A stretch of 64,000 bases of DNA, from the NCBI GenBank assembly GCA_034432935.1, contig DAOUBD010000012.1, positions 17,344 through 81,343 of the forward strand, given 5' to 3'. Under the pieces are notes generated by a model that made no database searches, had not been told where the DNA came from, and worked only from the letters and a program-made list of their open reading frames with translations. Below, piece after piece: positions 37,229 through 58,375 of the stretch (within the stretch, counting starts at the first letter, position 1; the number at the start of each line of letters is the position of its first letter). A program made the position numbers and the translations under genes. This DNA comes from Dehalococcoidia bacterium (lineage in GTDB: Bacteria > Chloroflexota > Dehalococcoidia > SM23-28-2 > RBG-16-64-32).

Positions 37229-39649
37229 CTAGGACGCCCCCTGCGCCGGGTGGATCAGGTTCCACAGCCGGTTGGGCGAGGCGGGGACCTCGGTGGCCCG
37301 GACGCCCAGGGGAGCCAAGGCGTCGTTGATGGCGGCCATGATCGCCGCCGGCGCCGTGTTCATAGCCCCCTCACCCATGCCCTTAGTCCCCAGCGGCGTG
37401 AGCGGCGACGGAGTGACGATCACTGCTTTCTGCGTCATTGGCACCTCATGGATGGTGGGGATCAGGTAGTCCATGAAGGTCGATGTTAGTATCTGGCCAT
37501 CCTCGTCATATACGTACTCTTCGAGAAGCGTGGCGCCCACGCCTTGTGCTATGCCACCCTGAGTCATGCCCTCCACCACCGCCGGATTCAGGCGGGTGCC
37601 GCAATCATCGGCCACGTAGTACTTCAAGATGTCCACCTTGCCGGTGTCGGGGTCGATCTCCACCATCACCAGATGGCAGGCGTTGGCAGCGGTGAGGTAG
37701 CTCTTGGCACGCCCCTCCTCGTCCGGCATGTCGCGGTCAGGCGCCGTCCAGACGTAGGTGGCCTCGACCGATGGCTCCGTGCCGGGCGGCACGAGGTCGC
37801 TGCGGAAGAGTATGGTCCCCACAACGTCCCGAAGGGGCATCTGGTACTCGAGGTTGTTCTTCATACGCAGGACGCCGTCCATAAGTTCGACGTTGTCCTC
37901 CGTGGTCCTCAGGAGGAAGGCGGCGACCCGCACGAGCTTCTGGCGGATGATGTCCGCGGCCCCCAGCACTGCGCCGCTGAGGGCGACGGCCAACCGGCTG
38001 CCTCCCGGCCCGTAGTGCGGCGGCGCCGAGAGGGTGTCCTGGCAAACCACCTGCACGTCTTCCGGCCGAACCCCAAAGTAGTCTGCCAATATCTGGGCTA
38101 CGAAGGTATACTGCCCCTGACCTTCCAGGGCGAAGCCCACCCGCGCCACTATCTTCCCGAAGGCGTCAATGCTGACGGTGACGCCCTCCGGCAGGGCGGT
38201 GCCTCCCTGTTGACCGATGATATTGTATACGTTGTTGTTGAATACGCCCGGCTCTATGCTGTTGACGATGCCGATGCCCACCAGGCGGCCCTGCTTTCGT
38301 GCCTCGGCCTGCTCCTGACGCAGCCGCTGGTAGTCCGACATCTCCAGCACCTTGTTCAGGGCGGCCTCATAGTTCCCGCTATCGTACTCGTTACCGCTAG
38401 GGATCCTGTACGGGAACTTGTCGGGCGGTATGTAGTTCCGGCGCCGGAATTCGGCGGGGTCAAGGCCCAGTCCGCGGGCGGCTATGTCCATCATCTGCTC
38501 CAGGACAAAGTTGTGGGGCGGGGGACCCATCCCGCGGTACGGACTGGCCGGAGCCTTGTTGGTGCAGACGATGGTCAGATCGTAGGAGGCGCAGGGAATG
38601 GTGTAGCTGCCGGTGAAGGCGGCTAACGGCTTGGCCGCTCCGATGGCAGCGTAGCCCTCGGCTGTAGCGCCGATGTCGTCGACCAGCTTGACCTTGAAGC
38701 CGGTAACAATCCCCTCCGCGTTCACCGCCAGGGACGCCTCGTAGTGGCGGTCCCAAGCCTGGCTTCCGCCTGCTATGAGGTACTCCATCCGGTCCTCGAT
38801 CCACTTCACCGGCCGTCCGCCGGCCTTCCGTGAGAGAAGGGCCGCGATCTGTGTGCCACGCCCGCCGCCCTTGCCGCCGAAGCTGCCGCCATGGGGATGC
38901 GGGATTACCCGTACCTTGTTGGGGGCCAGGCCCAGCCCTATGGCCGCACCCAGGGCCATCAGCGATGGCGCTTGGAACGTGCCCCGGAGGGTGAGGCCTT
39001 CCTCCACGGGGTCCCATTGGGCGATAACTCCAAAAGTCTCCATCGGGTTGGCCCCCACCCTATGCCAGCGGAACTTCTCGGTGAAGACGTGGGCCGCTTC
39101 AGCGAAGGCCTTCTCCGTGTCCCCCCAATTGAAGACCCGGTGCAACATGACGTTGGTGCCGTTTTCCTCGAAGATGAGAGGGGCGCCTGGCTCCAGCGCC
39201 TTGAACGCGTCCATCACAACGGGCAGGGGCTCATACTCCACCCGTATGTGCTCCAGGGCATCCTCGGCGATGTACCTGCTGGTTGCCGCCACAGCGGCCA
39301 CTGGCTCGCCCACGAACCGCACCTTCTCTTCCGCCAGGCAGCGTGTGCCCCAGCCGGGCGGCGCCGTGCCGATGGGGCGAGCCCATCGCTTGGCGTCTTC
39401 GCCGGTAACTATGGCCACGACGCCGGGCAGGCGCGCGGCCTCCGCGATATCTATGCTGTTGATCCGCGCGTGGGCGTGGGGGCTGCGCAGGATGGCGCAG
39501 TGCAGCATCCCCGGCATCTGCACGTTATCGATGAACTCGGTGCGCCCCGTCAGAAGACTCGGGTCTTCCACCCGCTTCACCGGCTGGCCCACGTACCGCG
39601 GCTGGCTGGTGGGCAGCTCTTGCAGAGATCTCGGGATATTGATTGTCAC
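37229..39649 (-). CDS. Xanthine-oxidase-family molybdopterin-binding large subunit (not CO dehydrogenase)
   Basis: YVGQPVKRVEDP, RSPHAHARI, GGSFGGK, GTKGMGE (catalytic Glu). Active-site loop is PYRGMGPPP. GTG 39649 overlaps the upstream TGA. Confidence 0.92.
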   Translation of the reverse strand: MTINIPRSLQELPTSQPRYVGQPVKRVEDPSLLTGRTEFIDNVQMPGMLHCAILRSPHAHARINSIDIAEAARLPGVVAIVTGEDAKRWARPIGTAPPGWGTRCLAEEKVRFVGEPVAAVAATSRYIAEDALEHIRVEYEPLPVVMDAFKALEPGAPLIFEENGTNVMLHRVFNWGDTEKAFAEAAHVFTEKFRWHRVGANPMETFGVIAQWDPVEEGLTLRGTFQAPSLMALGAAIGLGLAPNKVRVIPHPHGGSFGGKGGGRGTQIAALLSRKAGGRPVKWIEDRMEYLIAGGSQAWDRHYEASLAVNAEGIVTGFKVKLVDDIGATAEGYAAIGAAKPLAAFTGSYTIPCASYDLTIVCTNKAPASPYRGMGPPPHNFVLEQMMDIAARGLGLDPAEFRRRNYIPPDKFPYRIPSGNEYDSGNYEAALNKVLEMSDYQRLRQEQAEARKQGRLVGIGIVNSIEPGVFNNNVYNIIGQQGGTALPEGVTVSIDAFGKIVARVGFALEGQGQYTFVAQILADYFGVRPEDVQVVCQDTLSAPPHYGPGGSRLAVALSGAVLGAADIIRQKLVRVAAFLLRTTEDNVELMDGVLRMKNNLEYQMPLRDVVGTILFRSDLVPPGTEPSVEATYVWTAPDRDMPDEEGRAKSYLTAANACHLVMVEIDPDTGKVDILKYYVADDCGTRLNPAVVEGMTQGGIAQGVGATLLEEYVYDEDGQILTSTFMDYLIPTIHEVPMTQKAVIVTPSPLTPLGTKGMGEGAMNTAPAAIMAAINDALAPLGVRATEVPASPNRLWNLIHPAQGAS

Positions 39650-40149
39650 GACGCCTCTCCTCCGGCCCGCGCCGAGCCCTGCATTTTGGCGGCCGCCAGG
39701 CGCACCGACTCCATGATGTCCTGGTAGCCAGTACAACGGCAAAGGTTGCCCCCTAGCATTTCGCGAATGTCATCGTCCGAGGGCCGAGGGTTCTCGTCCA
39801 AAAGCTCCACCACCGACATGATGAAGCCCGGTGTGCAGAACCCGCACTGAAGCCCATGGGCCTCCATGAAGGCCTCCTGGATCGGGTGTAGATGGCCGTC
39901 CGAGCTCAGTCCTTCCACCGTCATCACCTCTGCGCCGTCCGCCTGAACGGCCAGCATGATGCAGGAGCGCACCGCCCTGCCGTTCAGGATGACGGTGCAA
40001 GCACCGCAGACCCCGTGTTCGCAGCCAACGTGCACACCCCCAAGGCCGAGCTCGCTCCGCAGGAAGTCCGCCAGCGTGGTCCTCGGTTCCACGGACGCCT
40101 CGTGTGTGACGCCGTTCACGGTTAGCCGTATCTTTTGCGGTTCTACCAT
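39646..40149 (-). CDS. (2Fe-2S) small subunit (CoxS/CutS-like)
   Basis: GCEHGVCGACT, LQCGFCTPG, GNLCRCTGY. Confidence 0.95.
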   Translation of the reverse strand: MVEPQKIRLTVNGVTHEASVEPRTTLADFLRSELGLGGVHVGCEHGVCGACTVILNGRAVRSCIMLAVQADGAEVMTVEGLSSDGHLHPIQEAFMEAHGLQCGFCTPGFIMSVVELLDENPRPSDDDIREMLGGNLCRCTGYQDIMESVRLAAAKMQGSARAGGEAS

Positions 40150-40154
40150 TGCTC

Positions 40155-41039
40155 TCAGCCTCCGCTGGCCTGTGTTGCCCGCTGCGCCGCATCGGCCAGG
40201 GCCCGGCCAGCCATGGTCTTCGCTAGGTGGCGCCTGAAGGCCGCAGAGGCGTGGATATCTGAGATCGGCTCCTCGATCTCTCTTCCTACTTCCTCGGCGG
40301 CCGCTGCCAGGGCCTCTGGGCTGGGCTGCTGCCCCTTCAGCAGGGTCTCCGCTCTGGCGGCTCGGACCGGCGTCGGCCCGGCGCCGAAGATTACGAGCCG
40401 TGCGTCACTGCATCTGCCCCCTGGATCCAAGGTTAGGGCTGCAGCGGCGCCCGCCAGGGCGAAGTCGCCGTGCCGGCGGGATACCTCCCGGAACCCCCAT
40501 CCTGTCCGGGGCGGCAGGACTGGGAAACGTACTTCCGTCAGAATCTCGTCCGGCTCCAGGGCGGTCGTCAGGTAGGTTACGAAGAAGTCGGAGGCTTCGA
40601 TTAAGCGCTGCCCTTCATTGCTGACAGCGGTCATCTCTGCTCCCAGGGCTACGCAGACCGCTGGGAGCTCCGCCGCCGGGTCGGCGTGGGCGATGGAGCC
40701 GCACACCGTCCCGCGGTTCCTGATTTGCGGGTGTGCGATGAAGCGTACGGCTTCGGCCAGAAGTGGCTGGAGACGGCGCACGTCGGCAGATCGCTCCACC
40801 GCCCTGTGGCGCGCGCCTGCTCCGATGGCTATGCTACCGTTCTCGGGCCGTATGTAATCCAGCTCGCTGATGCGGTTGATGTCCACCAGGGCGGCCGGGC
40901 GAGCTAAACGCATGTTCAGAAGTGGCAGTAAGCTCTGGCCTCCAGCGAGTACTTTGGCCTCGCCTCCGTACTTCTCGAGGATCTCCGCCGCTTCTCGCAA
41001 TGAGGTAGGGGCGAAGAACTCGAAGGGCGGCGGTTTCAC
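40155..41039 (-). CDS. FAD-binding medium subunit (CoxM/CutM-like)
   Basis: MKPPPFEF, LAGGQSLLPLLNMRLARP, IRNRGTVCGS, DIHASAAFR. Confidence 0.95.
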   Translation of the reverse strand: MKPPPFEFFAPTSLREAAEILEKYGGEAKVLAGGQSLLPLLNMRLARPAALVDINRISELDYIRPENGSIAIGAGARHRAVERSADVRRLQPLLAEAVRFIAHPQIRNRGTVCGSIAHADPAAELPAVCVALGAEMTAVSNEGQRLIEASDFFVTYLTTALEPDEILTEVRFPVLPPRTGWGFREVSRRHGDFALAGAAAALTLDPGGRCSDARLVIFGAGPTPVRAARAETLLKGQQPSPEALAAAAEEVGREIEEPISDIHASAAFRRHLAKTMAGRALADAAQRATQASGG

Positions 41040-41209: not shown

Positions 41210-41243
41210 CGGGGAAGGCGCCCTGCGCAGGGTGCCTTCCCCG
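41210..41243 (-). terminator. GC-rich hairpin 35 nt downstream of the substrate-binding-protein stop (terminator or mRNA-stabilising stem)
   Basis: CGGGGAAGGCGCCCTG-cg-CAGGGTGCCTTCCCCG, near-perfect inverted repeat with one G-T. No U-tract. Confidence 0.55.
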
Positions 41244-41277: not shown

Positions 41278-42741
41278 TCATTCCTTCCAGGGGCAGGTAG
41301 TGGGTTTGCACTCAATCCCCGGGAAGTTGCCGCGCAGCCCCTTCCCTTCACTGGTCTCGGTGTTCACCACACCGAGCTGCTTCCACTTGCCATCGGCCTG
41401 GACCCACTGGACAGTGGCCCAGTGCTCGTTGACCCAGTGGTCTTGGGGGCTCAGGATCGTGGGTCCAAGGCACATGTTACAGGTCCAGTCGCCCGTAAAG
41501 CCTGTGTTCAGCGCCTCTAGGAGACCTTCCCGCGTCAGGTCAGGCCCCGCCAGCTCCAGCGCTCTCACCAGGTGCTCCAGCGCGTTGACGGCGATGGTAG
41601 TGGCGACTGGGAAGTAGGTAGTGTTGGTCTCCTTGCCGAAGGCAGCGAGCTTGGCCCAGATGGGCTTGGTTGTGTTGTAGTATGGGTCGTCCTGGTAACG
41701 CACGGTCAGCACGCCATCCAGGGCGGTGTCGGTCTTGGGGTCGCCCGTAGGCAGCGCTCCCCATCCCGCAAGGGGGATGTTGCTACCGAAGTTCTCCCGG
41801 AGGGCCTTGATCAGCGAATACTCTTGGGTGGCTGCACCGTGATAGATCACGAAGTCTGCGCCGGAATTCACGACCTGCTGCGCCTGGGAGGTTAGATCCG
41901 TTTGGGTCGAATCGTGGGAGAAGATGCCGGCGATCTCCATGCCTAGTTTCTCAGCCTCGTACTTGATGCCCTGAAGGCCGGCCTGACTAGCCGGGAAGTC
42001 CAGATAGACCACGGCGATCTTCGCCTTCGGGTTCACCTTGGCTACAGCATCTACCAGTCCCGCGCCGGACAGAATGTCCGAGGCCTGGCCGTTGAACTCA
42101 TACGGGGACGTCTCGGGCTCCTGGCCCACATTGGAGCCATCGAGGTAGAAGAGGTTAGGGACCTTCTTCTGGACCAGGTAGTCGTGCACCGCATTGTGGG
42201 TTGGCGAGCCGATGTTGTAGAAAAGGGCGAACACCTTATCGCTTTCAACCAGCTCCTTCGTGGCCTGCACGCCTTCAGGACCTCCGGAGGCGTCATCCTT
42301 TATGAGGAGCTTGATCTTGCGTCCGTGGATCCCGCCTGCCTCGTTGATGCGGTCAATCATGGCCTGGAGGTATGGCCCCCAGACGACCTCGTAACTGGCC
42401 AGGAAGCCGGTCAGCGGGGCTGTGCGGCCTATCAGGATCTCCGTGTCCGTCACGCCGGTTCGGTCCTCGCTGGCGGGACGGGTTTTCCACATGGCCAGGC
42501 CGTCGTCCAACTGGAAGAGCCCCTCGAGCCCTCTGGCGTCACGGGGTTTGCTGGGGATGCCAGCGTCACCGGGCTTGGCGACCTTCGGGCTGGGGCTTGC
42601 GGCCGTTGTGGCCGCCCCGGTCGTGGCCGCTGGTGTTGGACTAGCCTTTTCTTCACCGCCGCCACAGGCCGCGGCGATCATTCCCGCTAAAGCCAAGAGG
42701 GTTACCAGCGCGGCCATCCGCCATATCGCTTGCCTCCGCAT
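41278..42741 (-). CDS. ABC transporter substrate-binding lipoprotein (LivJ/K-type)
   Basis: Lipobox IAAAC, Pro/Thr/Ala linker, INEAGGIHGRKIKL..DD. Confidence 0.88.
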   Translation of the reverse strand: MRRQAIWRMAALVTLLALAGMIAAACGGGEEKASPTPAATTGAATTAASPSPKVAKPGDAGIPSKPRDARGLEGLFQLDDGLAMWKTRPASEDRTGVTDTEILIGRTAPLTGFLASYEVVWGPYLQAMIDRINEAGGIHGRKIKLLIKDDASGGPEGVQATKELVESDKVFALFYNIGSPTHNAVHDYLVQKKVPNLFYLDGSNVGQEPETSPYEFNGQASDILSGAGLVDAVAKVNPKAKIAVVYLDFPASQAGLQGIKYEAEKLGMEIAGIFSHDSTQTDLTSQAQQVVNSGADFVIYHGAATQEYSLIKALRENFGSNIPLAGWGALPTGDPKTDTALDGVLTVRYQDDPYYNTTKPIWAKLAAFGKETNTTYFPVATTIAVNALEHLVRALELAGPDLTREGLLEALNTGFTGDWTCNMCLGPTILSPQDHWVNEHWATVQWVQADGKWKQLGVVNTETSEGKGLRGNFPGIECKPTTCPWKE

Positions 42742-42778: not shown

Positions 42779-44245
42779 CTACTGTTTCCAGGGGCAGGTA
42801 TCGGGCTTGCACTCGTATCCTGGTATGTTGCCGCGGATGCCCTTGCCCTGGCTGGTCTCGAAACTCACGATGGGCGTAATGGTGTCGTAGGCGCCCTTGG
42901 CGTTGTTCCAGCGCACGGCCTGGGCTGCCTCGAAGCTCCAGTGGTCTTGGGGGCCCAAGATGGTAGGGGCGATGCAGACCGAGCAGGTCCACGATCCGTC
43001 AAAGCCGGTTTCGATGGCTTGGATCAGCCCCTCTCTAGTGAGGTCCGGCCCTGCCAGCTCCAGCGCTCTCACCAGGTGCTCGAACTCCCGAAGGACCAGG
43101 AGGCTGAGGGTCTCGTTGTAAGGAATTCCTTCTTCCTTGGCGAAGGTCTGAAGCTTCTGCCACACGGGGTCATTGGGGTCGCTATATGGGCTCTTGGTGT
43201 TACGGGTGTTCTCCACGCCATCCAGCGCCTGATTGACCTGGGGGTTGGGCAGCGCGCCGCGCTGGTACAAGGGGACGGTGCTGCCGAAGGTCTGCCGCAT
43301 GGCGGTGATCGTGCCCAGGGCTGTCGTGAAGCTACCGTAGAATGTGATGGCGTCCGGCTTGGCGTCTAACGCCTGCTGGACATACGATGTCATATCGCTG
43401 GCGGTAACATCGAAGGGTACGTCGGCCACCAGTTGGCCTCCTCCCTTCTCCAGGGACGGCTTGAATCCCTCCATAAAGGGCTGGCCCAAAGCGTCGTTCT
43501 GGTAGATGGCCGCCACCTTCGCCCCAGGATGCTCCGCGAGGATCGCCTGGGCCTGCATGACGCCTTCCAGGATGTCCGGGAAGAGGCCCGGAAACTCGGT
43601 CGGGGTAGTCTCCGGCTCGGCCCATTTCACGTTCCCATCAAAGGTCCAGAGCTCTGGGACCTTCTTGGAGATGACGTACTCCCCTATGGCCTGATGGGGG
43701 GCGTTACCAACCCCGAAGAAGAGGGCGAATACCTTGTCCTTCTCCACCAGCTCCTGGACCACCTGGACCGTCACCGCAGGGTTGTACTGGTCGTCCCGCG
43801 TGACGACCTCTAGCTTGCGACCGTGGATGCCGCCCGCCTCGTTGATGCGCTTTACCAGCGCCTGAATGGTCGGTCCCCATACCGCTTCGTACGTGGCGAT
43901 AGCGGGGTTGCTAGCCCCCGCGTATCGCCCCAACAGGATCTTGTCCTGGGTGACCCCGGTGCGGTCTTCGCTGGCGGGTCGTTCCTTGAAGATGGCTAGG
44001 CCGTCATCGAGGGTCAAAATACCTTCGAGTCCAGCCACCGGTCGGGGGTTGCTGGGGATGCCGGCGGCTCCGGGGCCCTTCGGCGAGGGGCTGGCTGCCG
44101 CAGTGATGACTGGGCTTGCCTTGGATGGCGTGGACGTTGCCTTTTCTTCATCATCGCCGCCGCAGCCACCGGCTACGCCAGCCGCCGCGGCCAACACGAT
44201 GAAAAAATACATTATGCCGCGTATGCGCGTCAGGATGAACCTCAT
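42779..44245 (-). CDS. ABC transporter substrate-binding lipoprotein, tandem paralog
   Basis: Lipobox VAGGC, INEAGGIHGRKLEV..RDDQY. Confidence 0.88.
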   Translation of the reverse strand: MRFILTRIRGIMYFFIVLAAAAGVAGGCGGDDEEKATSTPSKASPVITAAASPSPKGPGAAGIPSNPRPVAGLEGILTLDDGLAIFKERPASEDRTGVTQDKILLGRYAGASNPAIATYEAVWGPTIQALVKRINEAGGIHGRKLEVVTRDDQYNPAVTVQVVQELVEKDKVFALFFGVGNAPHQAIGEYVISKKVPELWTFDGNVKWAEPETTPTEFPGLFPDILEGVMQAQAILAEHPGAKVAAIYQNDALGQPFMEGFKPSLEKGGGQLVADVPFDVTASDMTSYVQQALDAKPDAITFYGSFTTALGTITAMRQTFGSTVPLYQRGALPNPQVNQALDGVENTRNTKSPYSDPNDPVWQKLQTFAKEEGIPYNETLSLLVLREFEHLVRALELAGPDLTREGLIQAIETGFDGSWTCSVCIAPTILGPQDHWSFEAAQAVRWNNAKGAYDTITPIVSFETSQGKGIRGNIPGYECKPDTCPWKQ

Positions 44246-44392: not shown

Positions 44393-44461
44393 AGTGTAAG
44401 CGCGTTTTTCCATGGCGTCTGTCGGGCAGTTGCCCCACCACCTGTAGGGATTTACCCGACA
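44393..44461 (-). promoter_or_regulatory. Tandem palindromic operator plus -10 box (site 4 of 7), upstream of the SBP genes
   Basis: Minus strand: TGTCGGG-taaat-CCCTACA / GGTGGGG-caactg-CCCGACA / 21 nt / TACACT. The distal palindrome overlaps the 3' end of the upstream CDS. Confidence 0.75.
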
Positions 44462-45039
44462 TCGGCGCGGGAAGACGGCCGATCCCGACCCCCATCTTTC
44501 CGACCTATCGCCCGCCGTAGGCCCCGAACGAGAGCCCGGAAGGCTTTGCCCATCCAGATGAAAGGTATGAAGAGGACGAACGGCCTCCGCGGAGGCGCCT
44601 CTCCGACGATGGCGATGATGATCTTGGTGACCAGCTCATCGGCGCCGGATTTTATGAACGGCCCGATGAGGTGATTCACCACTGGCCCGATGCTGCCGCC
44701 AAAGTTAAGGGTGGCCTCTCCTCGGATCTCCGTCCGGCTGTCCTCGGCCGCATCGCTCAGCTGAATCGCGCCTGCTCCCGTGATCGGCTCGTTGAGGCCC
44801 CGCACCGTGAACCCTACTCGCTCCCCCTCCACCCATTCGGTAATCGTGATGTGAAACTTCGTCACGCGGGAGATCGGCCCGAGGTCCCCCTTTACGGTCC
44901 AGATGGACTCCCTCTCGTTGATGATCTCGTGGGACTGGTAACCCCGTGTGAAGGGCGCCCAGTTGTTCATATCACGAACGAACTCCCAGACCACTGCCCG
45001 GGGGGCCGCCATAGTCGTCGTATAGTTCACCGTTGGCAT
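44452..45039 (-). CDS. SRPBCC/CoxG-like protein with C-terminal hydrophobic/basic tail
   Basis: VWEFVRDMNNWAP...G...WT. ATG 45039 has GGAGGA upstream; the ORF-track start at 45510 is too long. Confidence 0.8.
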   Translation of the reverse strand: MPTVNYTTTMAAPRAVVWEFVRDMNNWAPFTRGYQSHEIINERESIWTVKGDLGPISRVTKFHITITEWVEGERVGFTVRGLNEPITGAGAIQLSDAAEDSRTEIRGEATLNFGGSIGPVVNHLIGPFIKSGADELVTKIIIAIVGEAPPRRPFVLFIPFIWMGKAFRALVRGLRRAIGRKDGGRDRPSSRADVG

Positions 45040-45062
45040 CGATATCCTCCGCCGCCGGCTGG

Positions 45063-50925: not shown

Positions 50926-51563
50926 CGACCGCCCGCCCGAGCTGCCAGGTCCACTGGTTCCACAAAACCGGCCCGCAGGGCCTCGATAAGGTCTCGTTCT
51001 CCAGTCACCGGCCGCAAGAACCTTGTCGCGCAGCGGCCCAGGGCGGCCTTGGAGTGCGCGTCGCTGCCGCCTATGGCCGGCATCTCCAAGGAGCGGGCGA
51101 TGGCCCGCAGCAACTCGGCTGACCCCAGGTCGTCGCCGTTAAGCACCTCCAGCGCGTGGTACAGGCGGTGAGCGTCGGACCACGGCGCCTGGCCCTGCCG
51201 ATGCCGCGTCGGGTGGGCCAAGGCCATGGCCCCACCCTCCTCCTCGACGATGCGCCGGAGCCGGTATACGTCGTACATCTCTGGGTGAAAAACCTCGAGT
51301 CCGAAGACCAGCACGTGCCCTGCCTGCGTGCCCACCTCCATGCCGCGCAAGACGGGGATACCGTGCCGTTCTGACAGCTCCCGCGCAGGGCCAGCGCCCC
51401 AGACCTGGTTGTGCTCCGTAAGGCAGAGGGCTGCCATGCCCAGCGCAATGCTGAGCCGCGCTGCATCGTCGGGCGTCAGGGCGCTATCGGAGGAGAGGGG
51501 GCAGGTGTGGACGTGAAGATCGATCAGATACTCTTCGGACCCCGCGCCGGCTCCAGACGTCAT
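50913..51563 (-). CDS. PHP-domain metallohydrolase
   Basis: DLHVHT, TEHN, GMEV, AHP, EVLNG, GGSDAH. ATG 51563 overlaps the etfA stop. Confidence 0.88.
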   Translation of the reverse strand: MTSGAGAGSEEYLIDLHVHTCPLSSDSALTPDDAARLSIALGMAALCLTEHNQVWGAGPARELSERHGIPVLRGMEVGTQAGHVLVFGLEVFHPEMYDVYRLRRIVEEEGGAMALAHPTRHRQGQAPWSDAHRLYHALEVLNGDDLGSAELLRAIARSLEMPAIGGSDAHSKAALGRCATRFLRPVTGERDLIEALRAGFVEPVDLAARAGGRQSA

Positions 51564-52531
51564 CTGGCGCGGACGGCTCTTGTAATCTCTGGCAGAATCT
51601 CCAAGCAGTCCCCGACGATGCCATACCGGGCGTAACGGAAAATGGCTGCTCCGGGGTCCTTGTTGATGGCCACGATGGTCTTGGCGGCAGAGCAACCAGC
51701 CATGTGCTGGCTGGCACCCGATATCCCGGCAGCGATGTACAGGGCGGGCCGGACGATCTTTCCCGTAAGCCCGACCTGGCGCGAGGCGTCCACCCAGCCG
51801 TCGTCCACGATGGGACGCGAGGCCCCAGCCATGCCTCCTAGGGCCTGCGCCAGCTCCTCTACCAAACGAAAGTTGGCCGCGTTGCCAAGCCCTCGTCCGC
51901 CAGCGACTATCACGCTGGCTTCCTCCAGCCGCGGTCCCTCGGCCTTGGCCGGCGAAAGCACCCGGATCCGTTCCTGAACGTCGCTCACGTCTAAATCGAC
52001 CGTTCGCACCTCAACGTTGGCCTCCTCGCGGGGTTCTGCCAATACGGCGTTAGGGAGGAGGGACAGAATGTGCGGCTCAGGGCCCTCTAGACGGTACACG
52101 ACCCTGGTATCCCCCCCATAGGCGGCGGCACTGGCTAACAGCTTACCGCCCTCCATCTCCAGGCCCGTGCAGTTCATGACGACGGCGCTGCCCAAACGTC
52201 CGGCCAATCGCGGAGCCACTAATCGGGTCTCTTGGTTCTGGGCGAACAGTAGGAGCCGCGGGCTCTTCTGCTGGCAGTAGCGGCGGATGCACTCGACATA
52301 ACGATCAGCCGAGAATTCTGCTAGCACTGACGCGGAAGCGTGGTAGATGGCCTGCGCGCCGAAGCGAGAGCCCAGCCGAAGGTCGGCCTCGGGAATTGGG
52401 CCGAGTATCAGCCAGTGGAGGGGCGACGCGAGGAGGGACGCGGCATGTCGGCCAAAGGTGAGGGCCTCCTCCGTGTCACTAGCGGGGGCAGCGCCCAGAG
52501 TCCACGTGCATACAACTACTGCTGAAGGCAT
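51560..52531 (-). CDS. etfA: Electron transfer flavoprotein alpha subunit
   Basis: VAGGRG, GASRPIVD.GW, QVGLTGKIV.P.LYIAAGISGASQH. ATG 52531. Confidence 0.95.
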   Translation of the reverse strand: MPSAVVVCTWTLGAAPASDTEEALTFGRHAASLLASPLHWLILGPIPEADLRLGSRFGAQAIYHASASVLAEFSADRYVECIRRYCQQKSPRLLLFAQNQETRLVAPRLAGRLGSAVVMNCTGLEMEGGKLLASAAAYGGDTRVVYRLEGPEPHILSLLPNAVLAEPREEANVEVRTVDLDVSDVQERIRVLSPAKAEGPRLEEASVIVAGGRGLGNAANFRLVEELAQALGGMAGASRPIVDDGWVDASRQVGLTGKIVRPALYIAAGISGASQHMAGCSAAKTIVAINKDPGAAIFRYARYGIVGDCLEILPEITRAVRAR

Positions 52532-52541
52532 TGCTGATCTC

Positions 52542-53357
52542 CTATTGTATGACTCGCTCAGCGCGCAGACGCTGCACCAGCTTGGCGGCGATGTCAGCCG
52601 GCGAGGCGCCATCGATGAACTCGCAACTCCCCTGGACGGCGGGCACGTACTGCCGGACGAGGACAGCCCGCGGCCGCACAGCTTCGGCGGTTAGTTCGAG
52701 GGAGTCCAGGGTAAAGATCTCGGGTTGCATCCTTCGCGCTTGGATGCTGCGTGCCGCTGTCGGATACCTGGGCTGGCCCAGCTCGCTGCTAACGGTGACA
52801 ACGGCCGGCAAGTCGGCCTCCACCGTCTCGTCCCCGTTGGGCGTGACCCTCGTCACCCGCACCCTGGCCGCTCCGTTCTCGGGATGGACTGACACCTCCC
52901 GGGCCACCGTGATTACCGGCATGTCAAGTATTTCGCCCAAGACCGCCGGCACCACCCCCTGGTCATCGTCAGATGCCTGCCGGCCGCAGAGGATGAGATC
53001 CGCGCCACCCGTCTGGCGCACATAGGCTGCTAGAATCTGGGCTATCGCCGGGCAATCGAGGAGCGTTGCGTCGGCCGATATGGCAGCGATGGCATCGGCG
53101 CCCAGCGCCGCGGCGTGGCGCAGCACCTGCGCCGGGTCGGGGCCCACGGAGACCGCCGTGATGGTGCACTCCAGGCCCGCATCACGTAGGCGCAGTGCGG
53201 CCTCCACCGCCTGCTCGTCGTAGGCGTTGATCAGCGCCGGCACGGCCGCCTGGGTGATGCTCTTGCCGTCGTCGCCGATGGTCAGCTTGCCGGCCAAGGC
53301 GTAGTTGTTGACGGCATCGGGGTCCAGCACTTCCTTCACGCAAACGACTATCCGCAT
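52542..53357 (-). CDS. etfB: Electron transfer flavoprotein beta subunit
   Basis: MRIVVCVKEV.DP, NAYDEQAVE, CGRQASDDDQG, PRYP. Confidence 0.95.
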   Translation of the reverse strand: MRIVVCVKEVLDPDAVNNYALAGKLTIGDDGKSITQAAVPALINAYDEQAVEAALRLRDAGLECTITAVSVGPDPAQVLRHAAALGADAIAAISADATLLDCPAIAQILAAYVRQTGGADLILCGRQASDDDQGVVPAVLGEILDMPVITVAREVSVHPENGAARVRVTRVTPNGDETVEADLPAVVTVSSELGQPRYPTAARSIQARRMQPEIFTLDSLELTAEAVRPRAVLVRQYVPAVQGSCEFIDGASPADIAAKLVQRLRAERVIQ

Positions 53358-53360
53358 CTG

Positions 53361-53663
53361 TCACCTCTCGTCTTGCCGGCGGACTGGCCGCGGATGGTTA
53401 GGCTCCGTGCCGTCCTTGAGCCACAGGTTGCCGGATTCGCACCACACCGCATCGTGCTCGTATCCTTCGGGCTTGCGGGTCAGGTTGACCATGAGATACC
53501 AGCGCCAAGGCGGGTCGCCATGGTCGATGAATTCACCGGTAAGCGTTCCGGTGAACTCCTGGCGGCTTGCCATGTGGGTGCCGGGCACGGCCTGGCCCCC
53601 GTCGCATTCGGCGATCTTGCCGGCCATCTCATGGTCGAAGCCGGGCCGGACAGGGTAGCTCAC
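53361..53663 (-). CDS. Small hypothetical protein (100 aa)
   Basis: Fills the gap between the NMO-family gene and etfB (14- and 3-nt spacers). GGAG upstream of GTG, ordinary protein composition, no family recognised. Confidence 0.7.
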   Translation of the reverse strand: MSYPVRPGFDHEMAGKIAECDGGQAVPGTHMASRQEFTGTLTGEFIDHGDPPWRWYLMVNLTRKPEGYEHDAVWCESGNLWLKDGTEPNHPRPVRRQDER

Positions 53664-53677: not shown

Positions 53678-54793
53678 TCAGCCGGCGGCGCCTACGGCAG
53701 GATCACCCAATAGGCTTTCGAAGGCCTCCTGGGCCTCGCCCACCATGTCGAAGATGATCTGGCGCACGGGCTTCATCGAGTTCACGAAGTGGACCCCTTG
53801 GCCCGCCGCCTCCGTCATGAAAGAGGTGATGTTGTTCTCCATGACGGACTGTTGGACCTCGGCGAACAGGAGAAGCTGGTATGGCGCCGGCAACGGCTCC
53901 GGCGCCCCCGGCGCCTCCCACTCTTCGTGCCATTGGCTCCTGGTGGTGCGCATCGTGAACCCCGATATGCAGCGCGACCAGACGGCGTCCTCGGTGTCGG
54001 CGTTGAGAATGATCTCCTTGATGGGCATCTCCTTGTCCGACTCACGGGATGCCAGCCACACGGTCCCGCACCAGACCCCATCGGCACCCAGGGCCAAGGC
54101 TCCGGCCAGATGCCTGCCCGTGGTCACCCCGCCAGCCGCGATCACCAGCTTGTCGCCCGCCAACTCCCGTACCAGCGGCACTATGGAGAAGGTGCCGATG
54201 TTGCCGGTGTGGCCGCCGGCATCGAAGCCCTGGGCCACGATGGCGTCGACACCGGCGTCGAGTTCCCGTTTGGCTTGGCGGGGCTTGCCCACCATGCCCC
54301 ATAGCATTACGCCACGCGAGTGAGCGGCCTCGATGATGAAGTTGGGGCTGCCCAATCCGAAGGCCAGCACTGGCACCCGCTCCTCCAGGACCACATCTAC
54401 CTGCTTGCGAGGCACATCTTGGGTCATCCATCCGAGCTGGTAAAGCTGAGGCGGGTTCCGAGGTTCTGGAATGTTGTGCCGGCGCTTCATGTCCTCGATG
54501 AACTTGCGGTGCGTCTCGGGAATCTGCGCCCGGAGGTCGTCGATGGTGCCCGAGGGAGGCACCGAAGCTGGTAACACCAGGTCGATGCCGAAGGGCTTGC
54601 TGCCTATGCGCTCTCGGATCCATTTGATATCGGCAGCGATCTCATCGGGCGACCGGTGGGTCTCGCCCAGGACGGCAAAGCCGCCGGCGTTTATGGCCGC
54701 CACCGCGACGTCTTTGCAGTGGGTGAAGGCGACTATGGGGAACTCGATCCCCAGGGTGTCGCATAGCCTTGTGTGAAGCGGGTCTTTCGCCAC
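53678..54793 (-). CDS. Nitronate monooxygenase-family FMN protein (FabK/IpdC-like enoyl reductase possible)
   Basis: LCDTLGIEFPIVAFTHC, GFDAGGHTG, AAGG...G, GVWCGT. Confidence 0.88.
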   Translation of the reverse strand: MAKDPLHTRLCDTLGIEFPIVAFTHCKDVAVAAINAGGFAVLGETHRSPDEIAADIKWIRERIGSKPFGIDLVLPASVPPSGTIDDLRAQIPETHRKFIEDMKRRHNIPEPRNPPQLYQLGWMTQDVPRKQVDVVLEERVPVLAFGLGSPNFIIEAAHSRGVMLWGMVGKPRQAKRELDAGVDAIVAQGFDAGGHTGNIGTFSIVPLVRELAGDKLVIAAGGVTTGRHLAGALALGADGVWCGTVWLASRESDKEMPIKEIILNADTEDAVWSRCISGFTMRTTRSQWHEEWEAPGAPEPLPAPYQLLLFAEVQQSVMENNITSFMTEAAGQGVHFVNSMKPVRQIIFDMVGEAQEAFESLLGDPAVGAAG

Positions 54794-54861: not shown

Positions 54862-54930
54862 ATTATCCGTCGCAGAAAACTGTCCTGTCAGTCGGGCAGC
54901 GCCCCACAATGGGTGGGGCCTAACCCGACG
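54862..54930 (-). promoter_or_regulatory. Tandem palindromic operator plus -10 box (site 6 of 7), upstream of the NMO-etfBA operon
   Basis: Minus strand: CGTCGGG-ttagg-CCCCACC / TGTGGGG-cgctg-CCCGACT / 22 nt / GATAAT. Confidence 0.7.
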
Positions 54931-55090: not shown

Positions 55091-55138
55091 GTGGCAAGAA
55101 CGGTGAGCCTCGCTAGCTCCCAGCCAGAGAGGAGACGT

Positions 55139-56347
55139 ATGATAGGCGCTCTCGATGGCATACGAGTCGTTGAACTCGGGCAAATGATCTCGGCGCCCTT
55201 CTGCGCCAAGATCATGGCCGACTATGGCGCCGACGTCATCAAGGTGGAGCCGCCCGCCGGCGATGTCGCCCGCGCCTGGGGGCCGTTCCCTGGCGATATC
55301 CCGGACCCGGAGAAAAGCGGGCTGTTTTTCTTCCTTAACACCAATAAGCGCGGCGTGACCCTAGACCTGGAGAACCCGGAAGGCCGCGGCCTTTTCCTGG
55401 AGCTCCTGCGCCGCGCGGACATCCTCGTCGAGAACCAGCGGCCGCAACAGATGCGGGCTTGGGGACTCGACTATGAGAGCATCGGCGCCATCAACCCCGA
55501 TCTGGTCATGATTTCCATCACTCCGTTCGGCCAGACCGGGCCCTACAGCGACTGGAACGGCTACGATATCAACGCCTTTCACCTGACGGCCTCCGGACAC
55601 CGCTACCTGGGTCGCCCGGGCCAGGCGCCGTTGGAGCCCGGCACCTTCACGGCCGACTTCTTCGGCGCCTATGCGGCCGCGGCCTGGGGCCTGGCGGCCC
55701 TTTTCGGGCGGCCCCTGGTGGGCGGGGGCCAGCAGATCGACGTGTCATGTGCGGAGGTGATCGCAGCCCTGTTCACGGGCGCCGAGAACATCGGGGGCTA
55801 CTATCAAGACGGGGTTTTCGAGCGCCGCACCGGCGTTGGGATGCCTCTGGGTGCCCCGGCCACCATACTTCCTTGCAAGGACGGCTACGTCTGGATGCTG
55901 GCCCTCGAGCCCGGTCAGTGGCGTGGCCTGGCCAGGGCTATGGGCGACCCCGATTGGACGCAGCTCGAAATGTTCCTGGACATGTTCACCCGCGCTCAGA
56001 ACGCCGAAGCCATGTACCCACTCATCACAGAGTGGACGATGCAGCACACTAAGCAGGAGATCATGGACCTCTGCCAGGCCAACGGCTGCCCCACCACTGC
56101 CGTCTATAACGTCCAGGAGGTCGCCGAGCATCCGCACCTGAGGGCCCGGGAGTTCATCCGGGAGCTGGAACACCCAGCTCTCGGGAGGGTGAAGGACATC
56201 GGCGCACCCATCCGATTAGCCGAAGGGGTCCTGGGGCCCGTGCAGCCAGCGCCTCTTTTGGGCCAGCATAACCAGGAGGTGTACGGCACTCTAATTGGCA
56301 GGAGCAGCGAAGAGTTGGAGGAGCTGCGCCGGAAAGGAGTCATCTGA
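55139..56347 (+). CDS. CaiB/BaiF CoA-transferase, subunit matching the N-half of 3566-5971
   Basis: PEKSGLFFFLNTNKR, ADFFG and KQEIMDLCQANGCP are shared with the fused gene. ATG 55139. Confidence 0.92.
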   Translation: MIGALDGIRVVELGQMISAPFCAKIMADYGADVIKVEPPAGDVARAWGPFPGDIPDPEKSGLFFFLNTNKRGVTLDLENPEGRGLFLELLRRADILVENQRPQQMRAWGLDYESIGAINPDLVMISITPFGQTGPYSDWNGYDINAFHLTASGHRYLGRPGQAPLEPGTFTADFFGAYAAAAWGLAALFGRPLVGGGQQIDVSCAEVIAALFTGAENIGGYYQDGVFERRTGVGMPLGAPATILPCKDGYVWMLALEPGQWRGLARAMGDPDWTQLEMFLDMFTRAQNAEAMYPLITEWTMQHTKQEIMDLCQANGCPTTAVYNVQEVAEHPHLRAREFIRELEHPALGRVKDIGAPIRLAEGVLGPVQPAPLLGQHNQEVYGTLIGRSSEELEELRRKGVI

Positions 56348-56349: not shown

Positions 56350-57570
56350 ATGCCTGGCAAGCTGCCTCTGGAAGGTGTGCGCGTTGCGAACTTCGGCTGG
56401 GGTTGGCTTGGGCCCGTCTTCGGCCAAACCCTGAGCTTCCTCGGCGCCGAGGTCTACAAGATCGAGTCGCGCGCGCGCATCGATATCAATCGCATGCTGC
56501 CTCCCTTCGCCGAAGGCATCCGGGACCCAGACCGCAGTCTTCAAAATCACGCCTGCTGGGCGGGCAACGGCAGCATAACCCTCAATCTCAAGAAGCCCGA
56601 AGCCCAGGAGCTGGCCCGCCGGCTGGTGGCCATCTCTGACATAGCGGGGGAAAACTTTGGCCCAGGCGTCATGGCCAAATTCGGCCTGGGATACGAGGAC
56701 CTGCGCAGAGTGAACGAGACCATCATCCTGGTGTCCATGCCGGCCGCTGGCCTCTTCGGGACCCTCAAGGACGTTCGGACGTATGGCATGAGCCTGAGCA
56801 GCCTTGCGGGCCTCGATAGCACCACCGGATATGATGACGGGGTGCCGGTTCCTTTCGAGAACGCCTTCGCCGACCCCCTGGGTGGCGTCGTTGGCGCGCT
56901 GGCCGCCGTCTTGGCGCTTTTCCACCGCCAGCGCACGGGTCGCGGCCAGCACATCGACTACTCTCAGCAGGAAGGGGTCATGCAGATGATGGGGCCCCAC
57001 TTCATGGACTACTTCTTCAACGGCCGCGTGGCCGGGCCCATCAGCAACAAACATCCTTTGCGAGCTGCGGCACCCCATGGGGTCTTCCCTTGCGCCGGAG
57101 ACGACCGCTGGATAAGCATCGCCGTTTTCACCGACCACGAATGGCTAGGACTCGTTCGCGCCATGGGGACGCCAGGCTGGGCAGCCGCCGCCGAGTTCAG
57201 CACCAGGGAAGCGCGAATTCGTAACATCGATGCCCTTCACGAGAGAATCGCCGCCTGGACTCGTGATCAGGATGATTACGAGCTGGCGGCCTTGCTTCAA
57301 AGACATGGCGTGGCCGCGGCGCCCGTCGCCAATATCGCCGACCTTCTCGACGATCCCCACTACAAGGCCCGGGGCACATTTATCGAGGTCCAACACCCCC
57401 TGGGGTTCAAGGAGATGATCTACGGCTCCTACGTCAAGATGAGCCGTAGCCAGCCTCGCGTAAGGCCGGGGCCCTACATGGGGCAGGACAACGACTACGT
57501 CTTCCGGGAGCTCCTTGGCCTCTCGGAGGAACGGTACCGGCAGCTCAAGGAGGAAGAAGTCATATTTTGA
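56350..57570 (+). CDS. CaiB/BaiF CoA-transferase, subunit matching the C-half of 3566-5971
   Basis: LPLEGVRV, RSLQNHA.WAGNGSITL, ENAFADP and HGVFPCAGDDRWISIAV are shared. Confidence 0.92.
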   Translation: MPGKLPLEGVRVANFGWGWLGPVFGQTLSFLGAEVYKIESRARIDINRMLPPFAEGIRDPDRSLQNHACWAGNGSITLNLKKPEAQELARRLVAISDIAGENFGPGVMAKFGLGYEDLRRVNETIILVSMPAAGLFGTLKDVRTYGMSLSSLAGLDSTTGYDDGVPVPFENAFADPLGGVVGALAAVLALFHRQRTGRGQHIDYSQQEGVMQMMGPHFMDYFFNGRVAGPISNKHPLRAAAPHGVFPCAGDDRWISIAVFTDHEWLGLVRAMGTPGWAAAAEFSTREARIRNIDALHERIAAWTRDQDDYELAALLQRHGVAAAPVANIADLLDDPHYKARGTFIEVQHPLGFKEMIYGSYVKMSRSQPRVRPGPYMGQDNDYVFRELLGLSEERYRQLKEEEVIF

Positions 57571-57616
57571 GCGCCGCCTTGCGCCGCTTGGAGGCGCATC
57601 GCGCGGGGAGGCCATC

Positions 57617-58375
57617 GTGACCACTCGCTTTCAAGATTACGCTAACAAGTACCAGAACATTCGAATGGAGCGTCGCAATGGCGTGCTTCAGATGACCTTC
57701 CACACGGACGGCGGCCCCATGGTCTGGAACGAGGTCACCCACCGGGAATTCGGCTACGCCTTCACTGATGTAGGGGCGGACCCCGAAAATCGGGTGGTGA
57801 TCATCACGGGTGCTGGGGATGACTTTTGCACGCAGATCGTGGCCGACGACTGGGACCTTACGGCCCCCCGCAAGTGGGACAAGGTGTACTGGGAGGGCAA
57901 GAGGCTGATCCAAAACCTGCTGGACATCGAGGTGCCCGTCATCGCTGCTGTCAACGGCCCTTGCACCATCCACTCGGAGCTCGCCGTGCTGAACGACATC
58001 GTCCTCTGCTCTGATACCGCCTATTTTCAGGACGCCGCCCACTTCGCGACCTTCAACGCCGTACCCGGCGATGGCGTCCACGTCATCTGGCCTCTCCTTT
58101 TGGGCATGAACCGCGGCCGCTACTTTCTACTTACGGGCCAGAAGATCTCTGCCCAGGAGGCCAAAAACCTGGGTGTCGTGGCAGAGGTGCTGCCCAAGGA
58201 GAAGCTCTTGCCGAGGGCCTGGGAGCTGGCCGAAGAGATGGCCCAGAAACCGATCCTCGCCCTCCGTTACACCAGGGTCGCCCTCACCATCCGCCTCAAG
58301 CGCCTCATGCAAGAGGCGACCGGCTACGGCCTCGCGCTGGAGGGTCATGGGCTGGTGGACTTCTCCTGCCCGTAA
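57617..58375 (+). CDS. camK: 6-oxocamphor hydrolase-like beta-diketone hydrolase (crotonase fold)
   Basis: Follows Rhodococcus CamK as I recall it along its length (FQDYANKYQNIRMER, IEVPVIAAVNGP, PGDGVHVIWP..LGMNRGRYFLLTGQ, LLPRAWELA). Equivalents of W40, H45, H122, H145, D154 and E244 all appear present. GTG 57617. Confidence 0.85.
   Translation: MTTRFQDYANKYQNIRMERRNGVLQMTFHTDGGPMVWNEVTHREFGYAFTDVGADPENRVVIITGAGDDFCTQIVADDWDLTAPRKWDKVYWEGKRLIQNLLDIEVPVIAAVNGPCTIHSELAVLNDIVLCSDTAYFQDAAHFATFNAVPGDGVHVIWPLLLGMNRGRYFLLTGQKISAQEAKNLGVVAEVLPKEKLLPRAWELAEEMAQKPILALRYTRVALTIRLKRLMQEATGYGLALEGHGLVDFSCP

Follow-up and report, generated by a model that had tools for sequence, protein, structure and literature searches.

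The closest described counterpart of the locus considered here is the AtcABC (1-TDH) molybdoenzyme of Sterolibacterium, Steroidobacter and Thauera together with the ring-opening hydrolase SRAH. The ring-A hydrolase of this anaerobic 2,3-seco pathway of steroid degradation was without assignment in 2019 (PMC7264893). SRAH has since been purified from Sterolibacterium, expressed in E. coli and found to cleave androsta-1,3,17-trione; it is an Amidohydrolase_2 enzyme whose gene is clustered with the 1-TDH genes (Jacoby et al., 2025; PMC11780191). The steps after SRAH involve a CoA ligase or CoA-transferase, an acyl-CoA dehydrogenase, an acetate-releasing hydrolase that is still unassigned, an enoyl-CoA hydratase and an aldolase; ring-B opening likewise lacks an assigned enzyme, and SRAH/1-TDH pairs retrieved from RefSeq occur only in denitrifying beta- and gamma-proteobacteria (PMC11780191). 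A second related system is MhyADH of Alicycliphilus denitrificans, which acts with a cyclohexanone dehydrogenase in anaerobic cyclohexanol degradation; its locus has a medium-small-large (M-S-L) subunit order with overlapping small-subunit stop and large-subunit start and a KstD-like gene downstream, and its large subunit, MhyADHL, is 57% identical to a Chloroflexi (Sphaerobacter) homologue (PMC3044224). Here we analyze a 64,000-nucleotide stretch of contig DAOUBD010000012.1 from the Dehalococcoidia bacterium assembly GCA_034432935.1 (hereafter the window), whose ~35-62 kb region probably encodes the AtcABC/SRAH ('2,3-seco type') pathway for opening rings without oxygen, in a form particular to Chloroflexota (Dehalococcoidia). 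All enzymatic steps of this reading were deduced from homology and conserved gene neighborhood.

The original prediction for this DNA, made from the sequence alone, had proposed that a xanthine oxidase (XO)-family molybdoenzyme, two KstD-family flavoproteins and a CamK-like hydrolase form a ring-opening route running from ketone to enone to 1,3-dione to hydrolytic cleavage, with the CamK-like protein as the C-C cleaving enzyme. All of these proteins are encoded where it had placed them (Table 1). The ring-opening logic and the cluster stand up to the analysis below; the identity of the C-C hydrolase and the novelty claimed for it do not. The prediction's account also did not include a luciferase-like (LLM) oxidoreductase, an NMO/FabK-like flavoenzyme, an electron-transferring flavoprotein (ETF, 51560-53357) and an Amidohydro_2 protein.

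The window has a G+C content of ~64%, and the nearest match of its first KstD-like protein, KstD1 (91% identity), comes from a Dehalococcoidia metagenome-assembled genome (MAG), the next relatives being Dehalococcoidia or Chloroflexota MAGs. Open reading frames (ORFs) were picked by coding signature, and this selection from the full set was scanned against Pfam. The scans describe a dense island of CoA-ester catabolism, with at least 14 genes for family III CoA-transferases, of which three are double-length, five crotonase genes (four canonical and one resembling 6-oxocamphor hydrolase, OCH), seven acyl-CoA dehydrogenase (ACAD) genes, four SCP-x-thiolase/DUF35 pairs, several short-chain dehydrogenases/reductases (SDRs), MaoC-type hydratases, ETF and a Liv-type ABC importer. 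Because the window is so dense in such genes, gene proximity alone is weak evidence of a common pathway, and pathway linkage was judged from conserved neighborhoods in other genomes rather than from proximity. Rieske, P450, HsaA and HsaC domains were not found in the scanned ORFs, in agreement with the lack of a recognizable oxygenase noted earlier, and oxygen independence of the encoded pathway is plausible.

Judged by its Pfam domains, the molybdoenzyme consists of the FAD, 2x[2Fe-2S] and Moco subunits of an XO-family heterotrimer, encoded in M-S-L order; these subunits are here called MoM, MoS and MoL. The MoL ORF spans 37229-39742, the real start being the GTG at 39649, which is preceded by GGAGGAG as its ribosome-binding site and forms a GTGA overlap with the stop codon of MoS. 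MoL falls below the cut-off for every curated NCBIfam model, and its PDB scores (466 bits to CoxL, 461 bits to QorL) indicate only generic similarity. A database search returned thousands of homologues, the best 120 of which are 67-96% identical, and two of these (70-71%) were named '3-oxo-Delta1-steroid hydratase/dehydrogenase large subunit' by JGI. As a reference for AtcA, a 132-aa fragment (~400 nt) was taken from the atcA amplicons of Thauera sp. GDN1 (PMC5554518, Table S2). MoL is 61% identical to this fragment and carries both peptides encoded by the atcA-specific primers, TEFIDN and PSGNEYDSG. Full-length AtcA was not found by a protein database search with the fragment, which returned short N-terminal fragments only and had as its best match a frameshifted Rhodocyclaceae locus, L037 (loci from other genomes and metagenomes are numbered with the prefix L). 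A search of metagenome contigs for matches to the published degenerate forward primer of atcA yielded full-length sequences; seven of 16 loci obtained in this way hold AtcA-like genes, the remainder being chance matches.

The AtcA of one such locus, L042, is 96% identical to the GDN1 amplicon and is therefore a bona fide Thauera-type AtcA; that of the atcABC locus L046 is 86% identical to it. MoL is 60% identical to both over the full length (phmmer, 1117-1123 bits), compared with 38-41% to Thermomicrobium CoxL and to generic plasmid XDH-family large subunits, the plasmid matches being at most 41% identical and taken as outgroups. MoM and MoS are 48% and 63% identical to the medium and small subunits of L042. 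In a CoxL-rooted neighbor-joining tree of 803 columns and 200 bootstraps, computed without full-length MhyADH, HmfA and QorL, AtcA, a metagenomic group (L038 and L051) and the window-type group form a single clade in 200/200 replicates, so that the grouping with AtcA anticipated for the large subunit is recovered, as a sister relationship. The window-type sequences form their own subclade in 194/200 replicates, and the branching order among the three groups lacks resolution. On this tree the window MoL is placed in a sister clade and not in AtcA proper. A PYRG[MY]GPPPHN loop and a G-x-GEG motif with the catalytic Glu are common to all members of the joint clade. From these comparisons we infer that MoMSL is a candidate AtcABC/1-TDH-like enone hydratase/dehydrogenase.

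The window also encodes a protein from the Amidohydrolase_2 family to which SRAH belongs, in a gene just outside the range covered by the original prediction (37229-58375), with a product of 37.3 kDa compared to the 38.6 kDa reported for SRAH. The statement that the 2,3-seco pathway's ring-cleaving step is not firmly assigned is outdated by the assignment of SRAH in 2025 (PMC11780191). Clustering of the family with 1-TDH genes is seen through orthologues in other loci, the window gene lying ~20 kb from MoL on the same contig. Orthologues at 71-78% identity directly follow MoL in L035, L036, L056 and L058; a more distant member (41-42%) follows MoL in L038 and in L051, where MoL, Amidohydro_2 and a KstD-like gene stand in a row; and in the atcABC locus L046 an Amidohydro_2 gene whose product is 70% identical to that of the window lies ~7 kb from atcA. 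In the window the gene is co-transcribed with the genes for an SCP-x-type thiolase-like protein (SCPx) and a DUF35 protein, a trio that is invariant in L035, L036, L054, L056 and L057 and whose last two members are probably a retro-aldolase or thiolase releasing acetyl-CoA. The termini of SRAH are available from its cloning primers (MAKTAK... and ...HGHGH; WP_154715975.1, ends only); members of the Amidohydro_2 family begin MA(K/D)xD..F, and among the 120 best matches to the window protein none ends in HGHGH and none is at least 90% identical to the L046 copy. A tblastn search of plasmids with the protein gave no match. Because Amidohydro_2 orthologues adjoin MoL elsewhere whereas the CamK-like gene was seen only in the window and L054, the conserved partner of the molybdoenzyme is Amidohydro_2, and we regard its product as the best candidate for the hydrolase that would open a cyclic 1,3-dione.

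The CamK-like protein is, as judged by sequence, a genuine member of the subfamily comprising OCH and Anabaena beta-diketone hydrolase (ABDH), and is a predicted retro-Claisen beta-diketone hydrolase. It scores 289 bits to both 1o8u (6-oxocamphor hydrolase, 3e-85) and 2j5g (the Anabaena enzyme, 4e-85), compared to at most 92 bits for any enoyl-CoA hydratase, the best of which gives 6e-25. An HMMER alignment to 1o8u indicates that His122, His145, Asp154 and Glu244 (OCH numbering) are all conserved; we take these, with His145 and Asp154 as a dyad, to be the catalytic residues of OCH. As in CamK of Rhodococcus NCIMB 9784 and Alr4455 of Anabaena, the crotonase fold, full-length similarity and these four residues are kept, and retro-Claisen cleavage of a non-CoA substrate is expected; unlike camK, which belongs to a camphor (P450/dehydrogenase) pathway, the window gene lies among class III CoA-transferases in an operon that is part of a 2,3-seco-like cluster. 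An exact match to the protein was looked for in a contig index and not found. The subfamily comprises ~300 clusters at 50% identity in a library of 1.84 billion proteins, and in some representatives of 517-765 aa (P0361, P0363 and P0372) the OCH-like domain occurs two or three times in tandem.

It is unlikely, in our judgment, that this crotonase opens the 1,3-dione made by the molybdoenzyme and that the flanking class III CoA-transferases activate its product, as the original prediction had it. In support of that assignment, the protein is a clear member of the only structurally characterized family of non-CoA cyclic beta-diketone retro-Claisen hydrolases, its gene is co-transcribed with CoA-transferases of which two have orthologues in a real atc locus, its operon's promoter region and the kstD operon have an operator-like sequence in common, and the gene is syntenic in the closest relative with enough contig. 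Several observations argue against it. First, the partner hydrolase of AtcABC in the characterized pathway belongs to the Amidohydro_2 family rather than to the crotonases, and the window has such a protein (PMC11780191). Second, an orthologue in context was seen only in L054 (87%), which belongs to the 85%-identical relative, and the gene was absent from all other related clusters seen, among them the more distant L035, L036, L056, L057, L042 and L046, which retain MoMSL, the two paired CoA-transferases, NMO-ETF and Amidohydro_2-SCPx-DUF35; in L057 no OCH gene follows the fused CoA-transferase pair, and in L035 the gene after the pair is unrelated. Finally, another OCH/ABDH-like gene (57% identity) shares an operon (L059, 4956-9698), behind a Liv-type ABC transporter, with genes for a cyclase, an LLM protein, a Meth_synt_2-like protein and a Rieske/VanA-type oxygenase, from which it follows that the subfamily serves unrelated, probably aerobic, pathways. 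The OCH-like gene and the CoA-transferase gene 5 nt downstream (58381-59574) look like a lineage-specific insertion into a CoA-transferase operon; homologues of that CoA-transferase (43-46%) sit divergently beside KstD in L004, L005 and L015. The CamK-like protein is accordingly not, on present comparisons, the best candidate for the ring-opening step.

Product activation by the CoA-transferases encoded with camK, also part of the original prediction, fares better, as the two genes upstream of camK have orthologues in the Thauera-type atc locus L042 (64% for the gene at 55091 and 62% for that at 56350), where an ECH gene is found as well. Orthologues of this pair at 65-71% identity occur in L035 (both), L036 (that of 56350 only) and L057, where they are fused into a protein of 800 aa; this fusion suggests that the pair works as a heterodimer. 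The pair is a probable activator of the ring-opened acid. Double-length (~800-860 aa), two-domain family III CoA-transferases are also encoded at 3500-5971, 9182-11575 and 29090-31678 of the window and at 14326-16728 of L057.

The wider neighborhoods point to the same association. In a Binatia MAG (L035) and JGI contigs (L036, L056 and L058), CoA-transferases, ECH, MoM-MoS-MoL, Amidohydro_2, SCPx and DUF35 genes occur in order, with identities to the window of 70-71% for MoL, 71-78% for Amidohydro_2, 73-76% for SCPx and 64-68% for DUF35. Orthologues of the CoA-transferase pair, NMO, a conserved 100-aa ORF (orf100) and ETF lie nearby in L035. Homologues of the CoA-transferase translationally coupled to MoL (55-64%) follow or neighbor MoL in L032, L035, L036, L046 and L056; orthologues of the CoA-transferase divergent from the kstD operon (68-69%) stand beside MoMSL in L035, L036 and L056; and the NMO-orf100-ETF module lies beside MoMSL or atc-like genes in L035, L037 and L054. 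The frameshifted Rhodocyclaceae locus L037 has NMO, orf100, ETF, LLM and a CoA-transferase around its AtcA-like gene. The ORF orf100 always lies between the NMO/FabK-like and ETF-beta genes (61% identity in the Binatia locus L035, 79% in L054, 45% in L037). In the 85%-identical relative (GCA_040960375.1; L032 and L054) the whole 45 kb is syntenic, including the OCH-like gene, and LLM-KstD-KstD-SRPBCC-SBP-MoMSL-CoA-transferase-SDR, a single minus-strand gene string (SBP, substrate-binding protein), is kept in L032. The placement of both kstD genes and MoMSL on one conserved string, together with the grouping of MoL with AtcA, bears out the proposed sequence of ketone, enone, 1,3-dione and hydrolysis.

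Both KstD-family proteins, which are ~61% identical to each other and encoded by genes overlapping by 14 nt, have 7p18 as their best PDB match (340 bits for KstD1, 313 bits for KstD2), which we take to be AcmB, the delta1-dehydrogenase of Sterolibacterium denitrificans. The Rhodococcus KstD1 structure is well behind (199 and 233 bits for KstD1 and KstD2), and 8am3, 8am6 and 8am8, presumably the Alicycliphilus cyclohexanone dehydrogenase, score 170-186 bits. KstD1, the copy checked residue by residue, keeps the equivalents of Tyr118, Tyr363, Tyr536 and Gly540 of 7p18 (AcmB numbering), a set we assume to be catalytic. Against the NCBIfam KstD model PRK12844 the proteins score 460 and 464 bits, below the equivalog cut-off of 789, and against the model for ChcC1 (4-oxocyclohexanecarboxylate 2-dehydrogenase) 459 and 435 bits (cut-off 1000); these near-equal scores place them in the family and leave the predicted substrate undefined. 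The tandem pair is conserved in L001 and L032. KstD and the molybdoenzyme are not always linked, an association ruled out by a KstD-anchored genome scan in which KstD-centered Chloroflexota loci often lack the molybdoenzyme.

The first gene of the kstD operon encodes the LLM oxidoreductase, which scores 376.5 bits to TIGR03617 (NCBIfam cut-off 278), an F420-oxidoreductase and not a known oxygenase subgroup; its gene keeps this position in L001 and L032, a copy with 57% identity comes after the AtcA-like gene in L037, and the protein is a candidate ene-reductase or redox helper. The SRPBCC protein encoded after KstD2, whose gene also follows KstD in L032 and L057, is a possible carrier for a hydrophobic substrate, and its hydrophobic-basic C-terminal tail could anchor it to the membrane. 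Its real start is the ATG at 45039, a 352-aa minus-strand ORF at 44452-45510 being an artifact that overlaps kstD2. One of the two SBP genes is conserved in L032, as is the SDR gene that ends the Mo operon. A strong 15-bp GC-rich hairpin at 41210-41243, between the second SBP gene and the Mo operon, is more likely an mRNA-stabilizing or attenuating element than a terminator, since its T-rich tail lies on the plus strand only and the genes are on the minus strand.

Taken together, the genes suggest the following route. An alicyclic or steroid-like ketone would enter by the Liv-type ABC system, perhaps to be held by the SRPBCC protein, and KstD1 and/or KstD2 would desaturate the ring ketone to a conjugated enone, with the LLM and NMO flavoenzymes as candidates for adjusting other double bonds. 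The AtcABC-like molybdoenzyme would hydrate the enone and oxidize the alcohol to a cyclic 1,3-dione, which the SRAH-like Amidohydro_2 would hydrolyze to a seco keto-acid. The CoA-transferase pair would then form the CoA ester, from which an acyl-CoA dehydrogenase, an enoyl-CoA hydratase and the SCPx/DUF35 aldolase-thiolase would take off C2 units, with ETF as the electron acceptor. The OCH/CamK-like enzyme would most likely open a further beta-diketone, one not bound to CoA, which could be a different ring or an intermediate with an acetyl group; the CoA-transferase encoded next to the enzyme would activate the product. As to the substrate, a hydrophobic polycyclic compound would agree with the AcmB-like KstDs and the SRPBCC protein, and a smaller, carboxylated alicyclic compound would agree with the Liv-type binding proteins and the near-equal scores for ChcC1.

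A more specific form of this route, which we put forward only tentatively as an improbable case, has the logic of desaturation, hydration/oxidation and hydrolysis applied twice: the tandem KstDs would give two enones, the SRAH-like enzyme would open the first ring, and the OCH-like enzyme would perform a second C-C hydrolysis (acetate release or ring B). A different candidate for the acetate-releasing hydrolase, of CoA-binding type, is the crotonase encoded on the plus strand at 17672-18553; its orthologues (76-80%) lie directly beside MoM in L034, L035, L036 and L056, and it probably belongs to the same pathway despite lying 20 kb off in the window. Five loci (L054, 1-1641; L035, 1-3746; L036, 1-3499; L056, 1-1436; L057, 1037-5940) carry, beside the MoMSL/Amidohydro_2 module, genes that resemble those of acetone or acetophenone carboxylases (Hydantoinase A, Hydantoinase B and Acetone_carb_G), with two or three class III CoA-transferase genes after them, and the matching region would fall past position 64000 of the window. 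Because opening of a 1,3-dione ring gives a methyl ketone, carboxylation could replace acetate-releasing hydrolysis.

Several observations weigh against an AtcABC/SRAH-type pathway. The distinct MoL clade and its ~60% identity to bona fide AtcA mean that substrate and even reaction type could differ, and N-terminal fragments that JGI labels HmfA are 44-50% identical to MoL, so relatives acting on CoA esters are not far; over the same N-terminal domain the figure for AtcA is 61%. The window Amidohydro_2 gene is in a different operon from MoL, and no operator site was found for it or for the Mo operon. Its orthology to SRAH would rest on family, neighborhood and the 70% identity to the Amidohydro_2 of an atc locus. 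Liv-type binding proteins would be unusual for steroid uptake, and doubt has been raised about the hydratase activity even of MhyADH (PMC4052635). In an island so rich in paralogues, some associations may be coincidental.

These points bear on an alternative we consider quite doubtful, namely that there is no single pathway, the island being of a kind usual in heterotrophic Dehalococcoidia/SAR202-like genomes, with different substrates for the kstD, Mo and camK operons and a molybdoenzyme that could hydroxylate a CoA thioester (HmfA-like) or another compound: the paralogue counts given above, the KstD-centered loci L004 and L015 without molybdoenzyme or OCH within 10 kb, L034 with MoMSL and neither KstD nor Amidohydro_2, the HmfA-labeled fragments and the Mo operon lacking an operator are consistent with it, and it is opposed by the recurrence, mostly compact, of MoMSL, Amidohydro_2-SCPx-DUF35, the CoA-transferase pair, the CoA-transferase of 49699 type, the crotonase of 17672 type and NMO-orf100-ETF in Binatia, JGI metagenome and Dehalococcoidia loci, by parts of this gene set in Thauera- and Rhodocyclaceae-type atc loci, by the conserved string from LLM to SDR, and by the MoL-Amidohydro_2-KstD row of L051. 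HmfABC, the 2-furoyl-CoA dehydrogenase of Cupriavidus basilensis, is likewise an XO-family heterotrimer in a CoA-dependent catabolic cluster; it is less similar to MoL than AtcA is, and KstD, Amidohydro_2 and SCPx/DUF35 neighbors are unlike those of the hmf cluster.

We return, then, to an AtcABC/SRAH-type pathway. With the proteobacterial system the window has in common the XO-family M-S-L enzyme with its active-site loops, a genetically linked Amidohydro_2 hydrolase, CoA-dependent downstream steps, CoA-transferase pair orthologues present in an atc locus, and KstD/AcmB-type desaturases. It differs in its Chloroflexota host, in the separate MoL clade, in its tandem pair of KstDs, its Liv-type ABC importer, its SRPBCC protein, its class III CoA-transferases and its additional OCH-type hydrolase, and in the acetone-carboxylase-like genes that its relatives carry beside the cluster. 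Compared by published description, the MhyADH and cyclohexanone dehydrogenase system of A. denitrificans has the same M-S-L overlap, a nearby KstD-family gene and the same logic from ketone to enone to 1,3-dione; in contrast to that system, the window KstDs match 7p18 far better than the 8am3/8am6/8am8 chains. To our knowledge, the gene for a cyclohexane-1,3-dione hydrolase is not known.

Part of the locus may also be regulated together. A perfect operator-like palindrome of the form TGTCGGGCA-N2-TGCCCGACA occupies 49555-49574, in the region that separates the LLM-kstD operon from the divergent CoA-transferase gene. A one-mismatch copy lies upstream of the SBP genes (44420-44439), a variant with a spacer one base shorter lies between the NMO-ETF and camK operons (54890-54908), and a weak copy lies between CoA-transferase and ACAD genes (25398-25417). 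The pattern has six matches compared to 0.18 expected from shuffling, and over the intergenic sites it takes the general form TGTCGGGCA-N(1-2)-TGCCC(G/C)ACA. The 91%-identical relative has the palindrome at the corresponding place (L001, 2416-2435), and in the 85% relative it is not conserved. The 54890 site adjoins or overlaps the -35 element in the sole match that resembles a promoter. An operator shared by the kstD and camK operons, as described in the original prediction, is thus present, in the shorter-spacer form for camK, and no such site lies before the Mo operon. We propose that the kstD, SBP and NMO/camK promoters are regulated together through the palindrome. Among the ORFs picked by coding signature, Pfam scanning revealed no transcription-factor domain that would mark a candidate regulator.

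Elsewhere in the window, a plus-strand gene at 1243-2760 and flanked by SDR genes encodes a fusion protein in which a 2x[4Fe-4S] ferredoxin domain at the N terminus is joined to a flavin domain of amine-oxidase/FAD_binding_2-like type; this protein may be an oxygen-independent ene-reductase or desaturase.

Table 1. Coordinates, strand and supporting matches of the features discussed (window numbering).
Feature	Position	Strand	Match or setting
SDR, final gene of Mo operon	35129-36016	-	adh_short_C2 1.7e-62; 4-nt overlap with CoA-transferase
Class III CoA-transferase, translationally coupled to MoL	36013-37224	-	CoA_transf_3 4.7e-125
MoL, large (Moco) subunit, AtcA/1-TDH-like, 806 aa	37229-39649	-	Ald_Xan_dh_C + MoCoBD_1/2
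MoS, small (2x[2Fe-2S]) subunit, AtcC-like	39646-40149	-	Fer2_2 3.8e-34 + Fer2
MoM, medium (FAD) subunit, AtcB-like	40155-41039	-	FAD_binding_5 3e-50 + CO_deh_flav_C
Liv-type ABC substrate-binding protein	41278-42741	-	Peripla_BP_6 1.5e-46
Liv-type ABC substrate-binding protein	42779-44245	-	Peripla_BP_6 6.8e-42
SRPBCC/CoxG-like ligand-binding protein, 195 aa, hydrophobic-basic C-terminal tail	44452-45039	-	Polyketide_cyc2 9e-11, COXG 1e-5
KstD2, KstD-family flavoprotein	45063-46745	-	FAD_binding_2 1.3e-78
KstD1, KstD-family flavoprotein (putative ring ketone to enone desaturase)	46732-48384	-	FAD_binding_2 8.5e-76
LLM oxidoreductase, F420-type subgroup TIGR03617, first kstD-operon gene	48406-49467	-	Bac_luciferase 1.7e-56
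Operator-like perfect palindrome TGTCGGGCATCTGCCCGACA	49555-49574	.	between LLM-kstD operon and divergent CoA-transferase
Class III CoA-transferase, divergent from kstD operon across the palindrome	49699-50925	+	CoA_transf_3 1.4e-119
ETF alpha	51560-52612	-	Pfam
ETF beta	52542-53357	-	Pfam
Conserved 100-aa ORF (orf100)	53361-53663	-	no Pfam match
NMO/FabK-like flavoenzyme	53678-54793	-	Pfam
Class III CoA-transferase (pair)	55091-56347	+	Pfam
Class III CoA-transferase (pair)	56350-57570	+	Pfam
OCH/ABDH-type (CamK-like) crotonase-fold beta-diketone hydrolase (predicted)	57617-58375	+	ECH_1 1.1e-29; 1o8u, 2j5g matches
Class III CoA-transferase, co-transcribed with OCH-like gene	58381-59574	+	CoA_transf_3 3.1e-93; 5-nt gap
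DUF35/ChsH2 OB-fold protein	59571-59996	-	OB_ChsH2_C + zf-ChsH2
SCP-x-type thiolase-like protein	60015-61184	-	Thiolase_C_1 5.6e-51
Amidohydrolase_2 protein, SRAH-like, 326 aa, 37.3 kDa	61205-62185	-	Amidohydro_2 (PF04909) 9.5e-33

A full-text literature search found no paper linking the 2,3-seco pathway with Chloroflexota or Binatia, and Jacoby et al. (2025) raised the question of how other bacteria open steroid rings without oxygen (PMC11780191). As a candidate for an unassigned ring-cleaving enzyme the locus is obsolete; the novelty left lies in a wider distribution of this pathway type and in a candidate second hydrolase. If two hydrolases do act in succession, the OCH-like enzyme would be a candidate for an unknown step of anaerobic steroid or alicyclic degradation, and the pathway would extend to Chloroflexota and Binatia. 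Uncultured Dehalococcoidia, Binatia and many contigs from metagenomes have, at 60-78% identity, the pairing of the molybdoenzyme with Amidohydro_2 together with CoA-transferases and an aldolase, with at least 120 large-subunit homologues at 67% identity or more among the matches listed. Given this recurrence, the hydrolytic opening of alicyclic ketone rings without oxygen may be far commoner than studies of cultures would indicate, and it may matter for how steroids, terpenoids or carboxyl-rich alicyclic matter are turned over.

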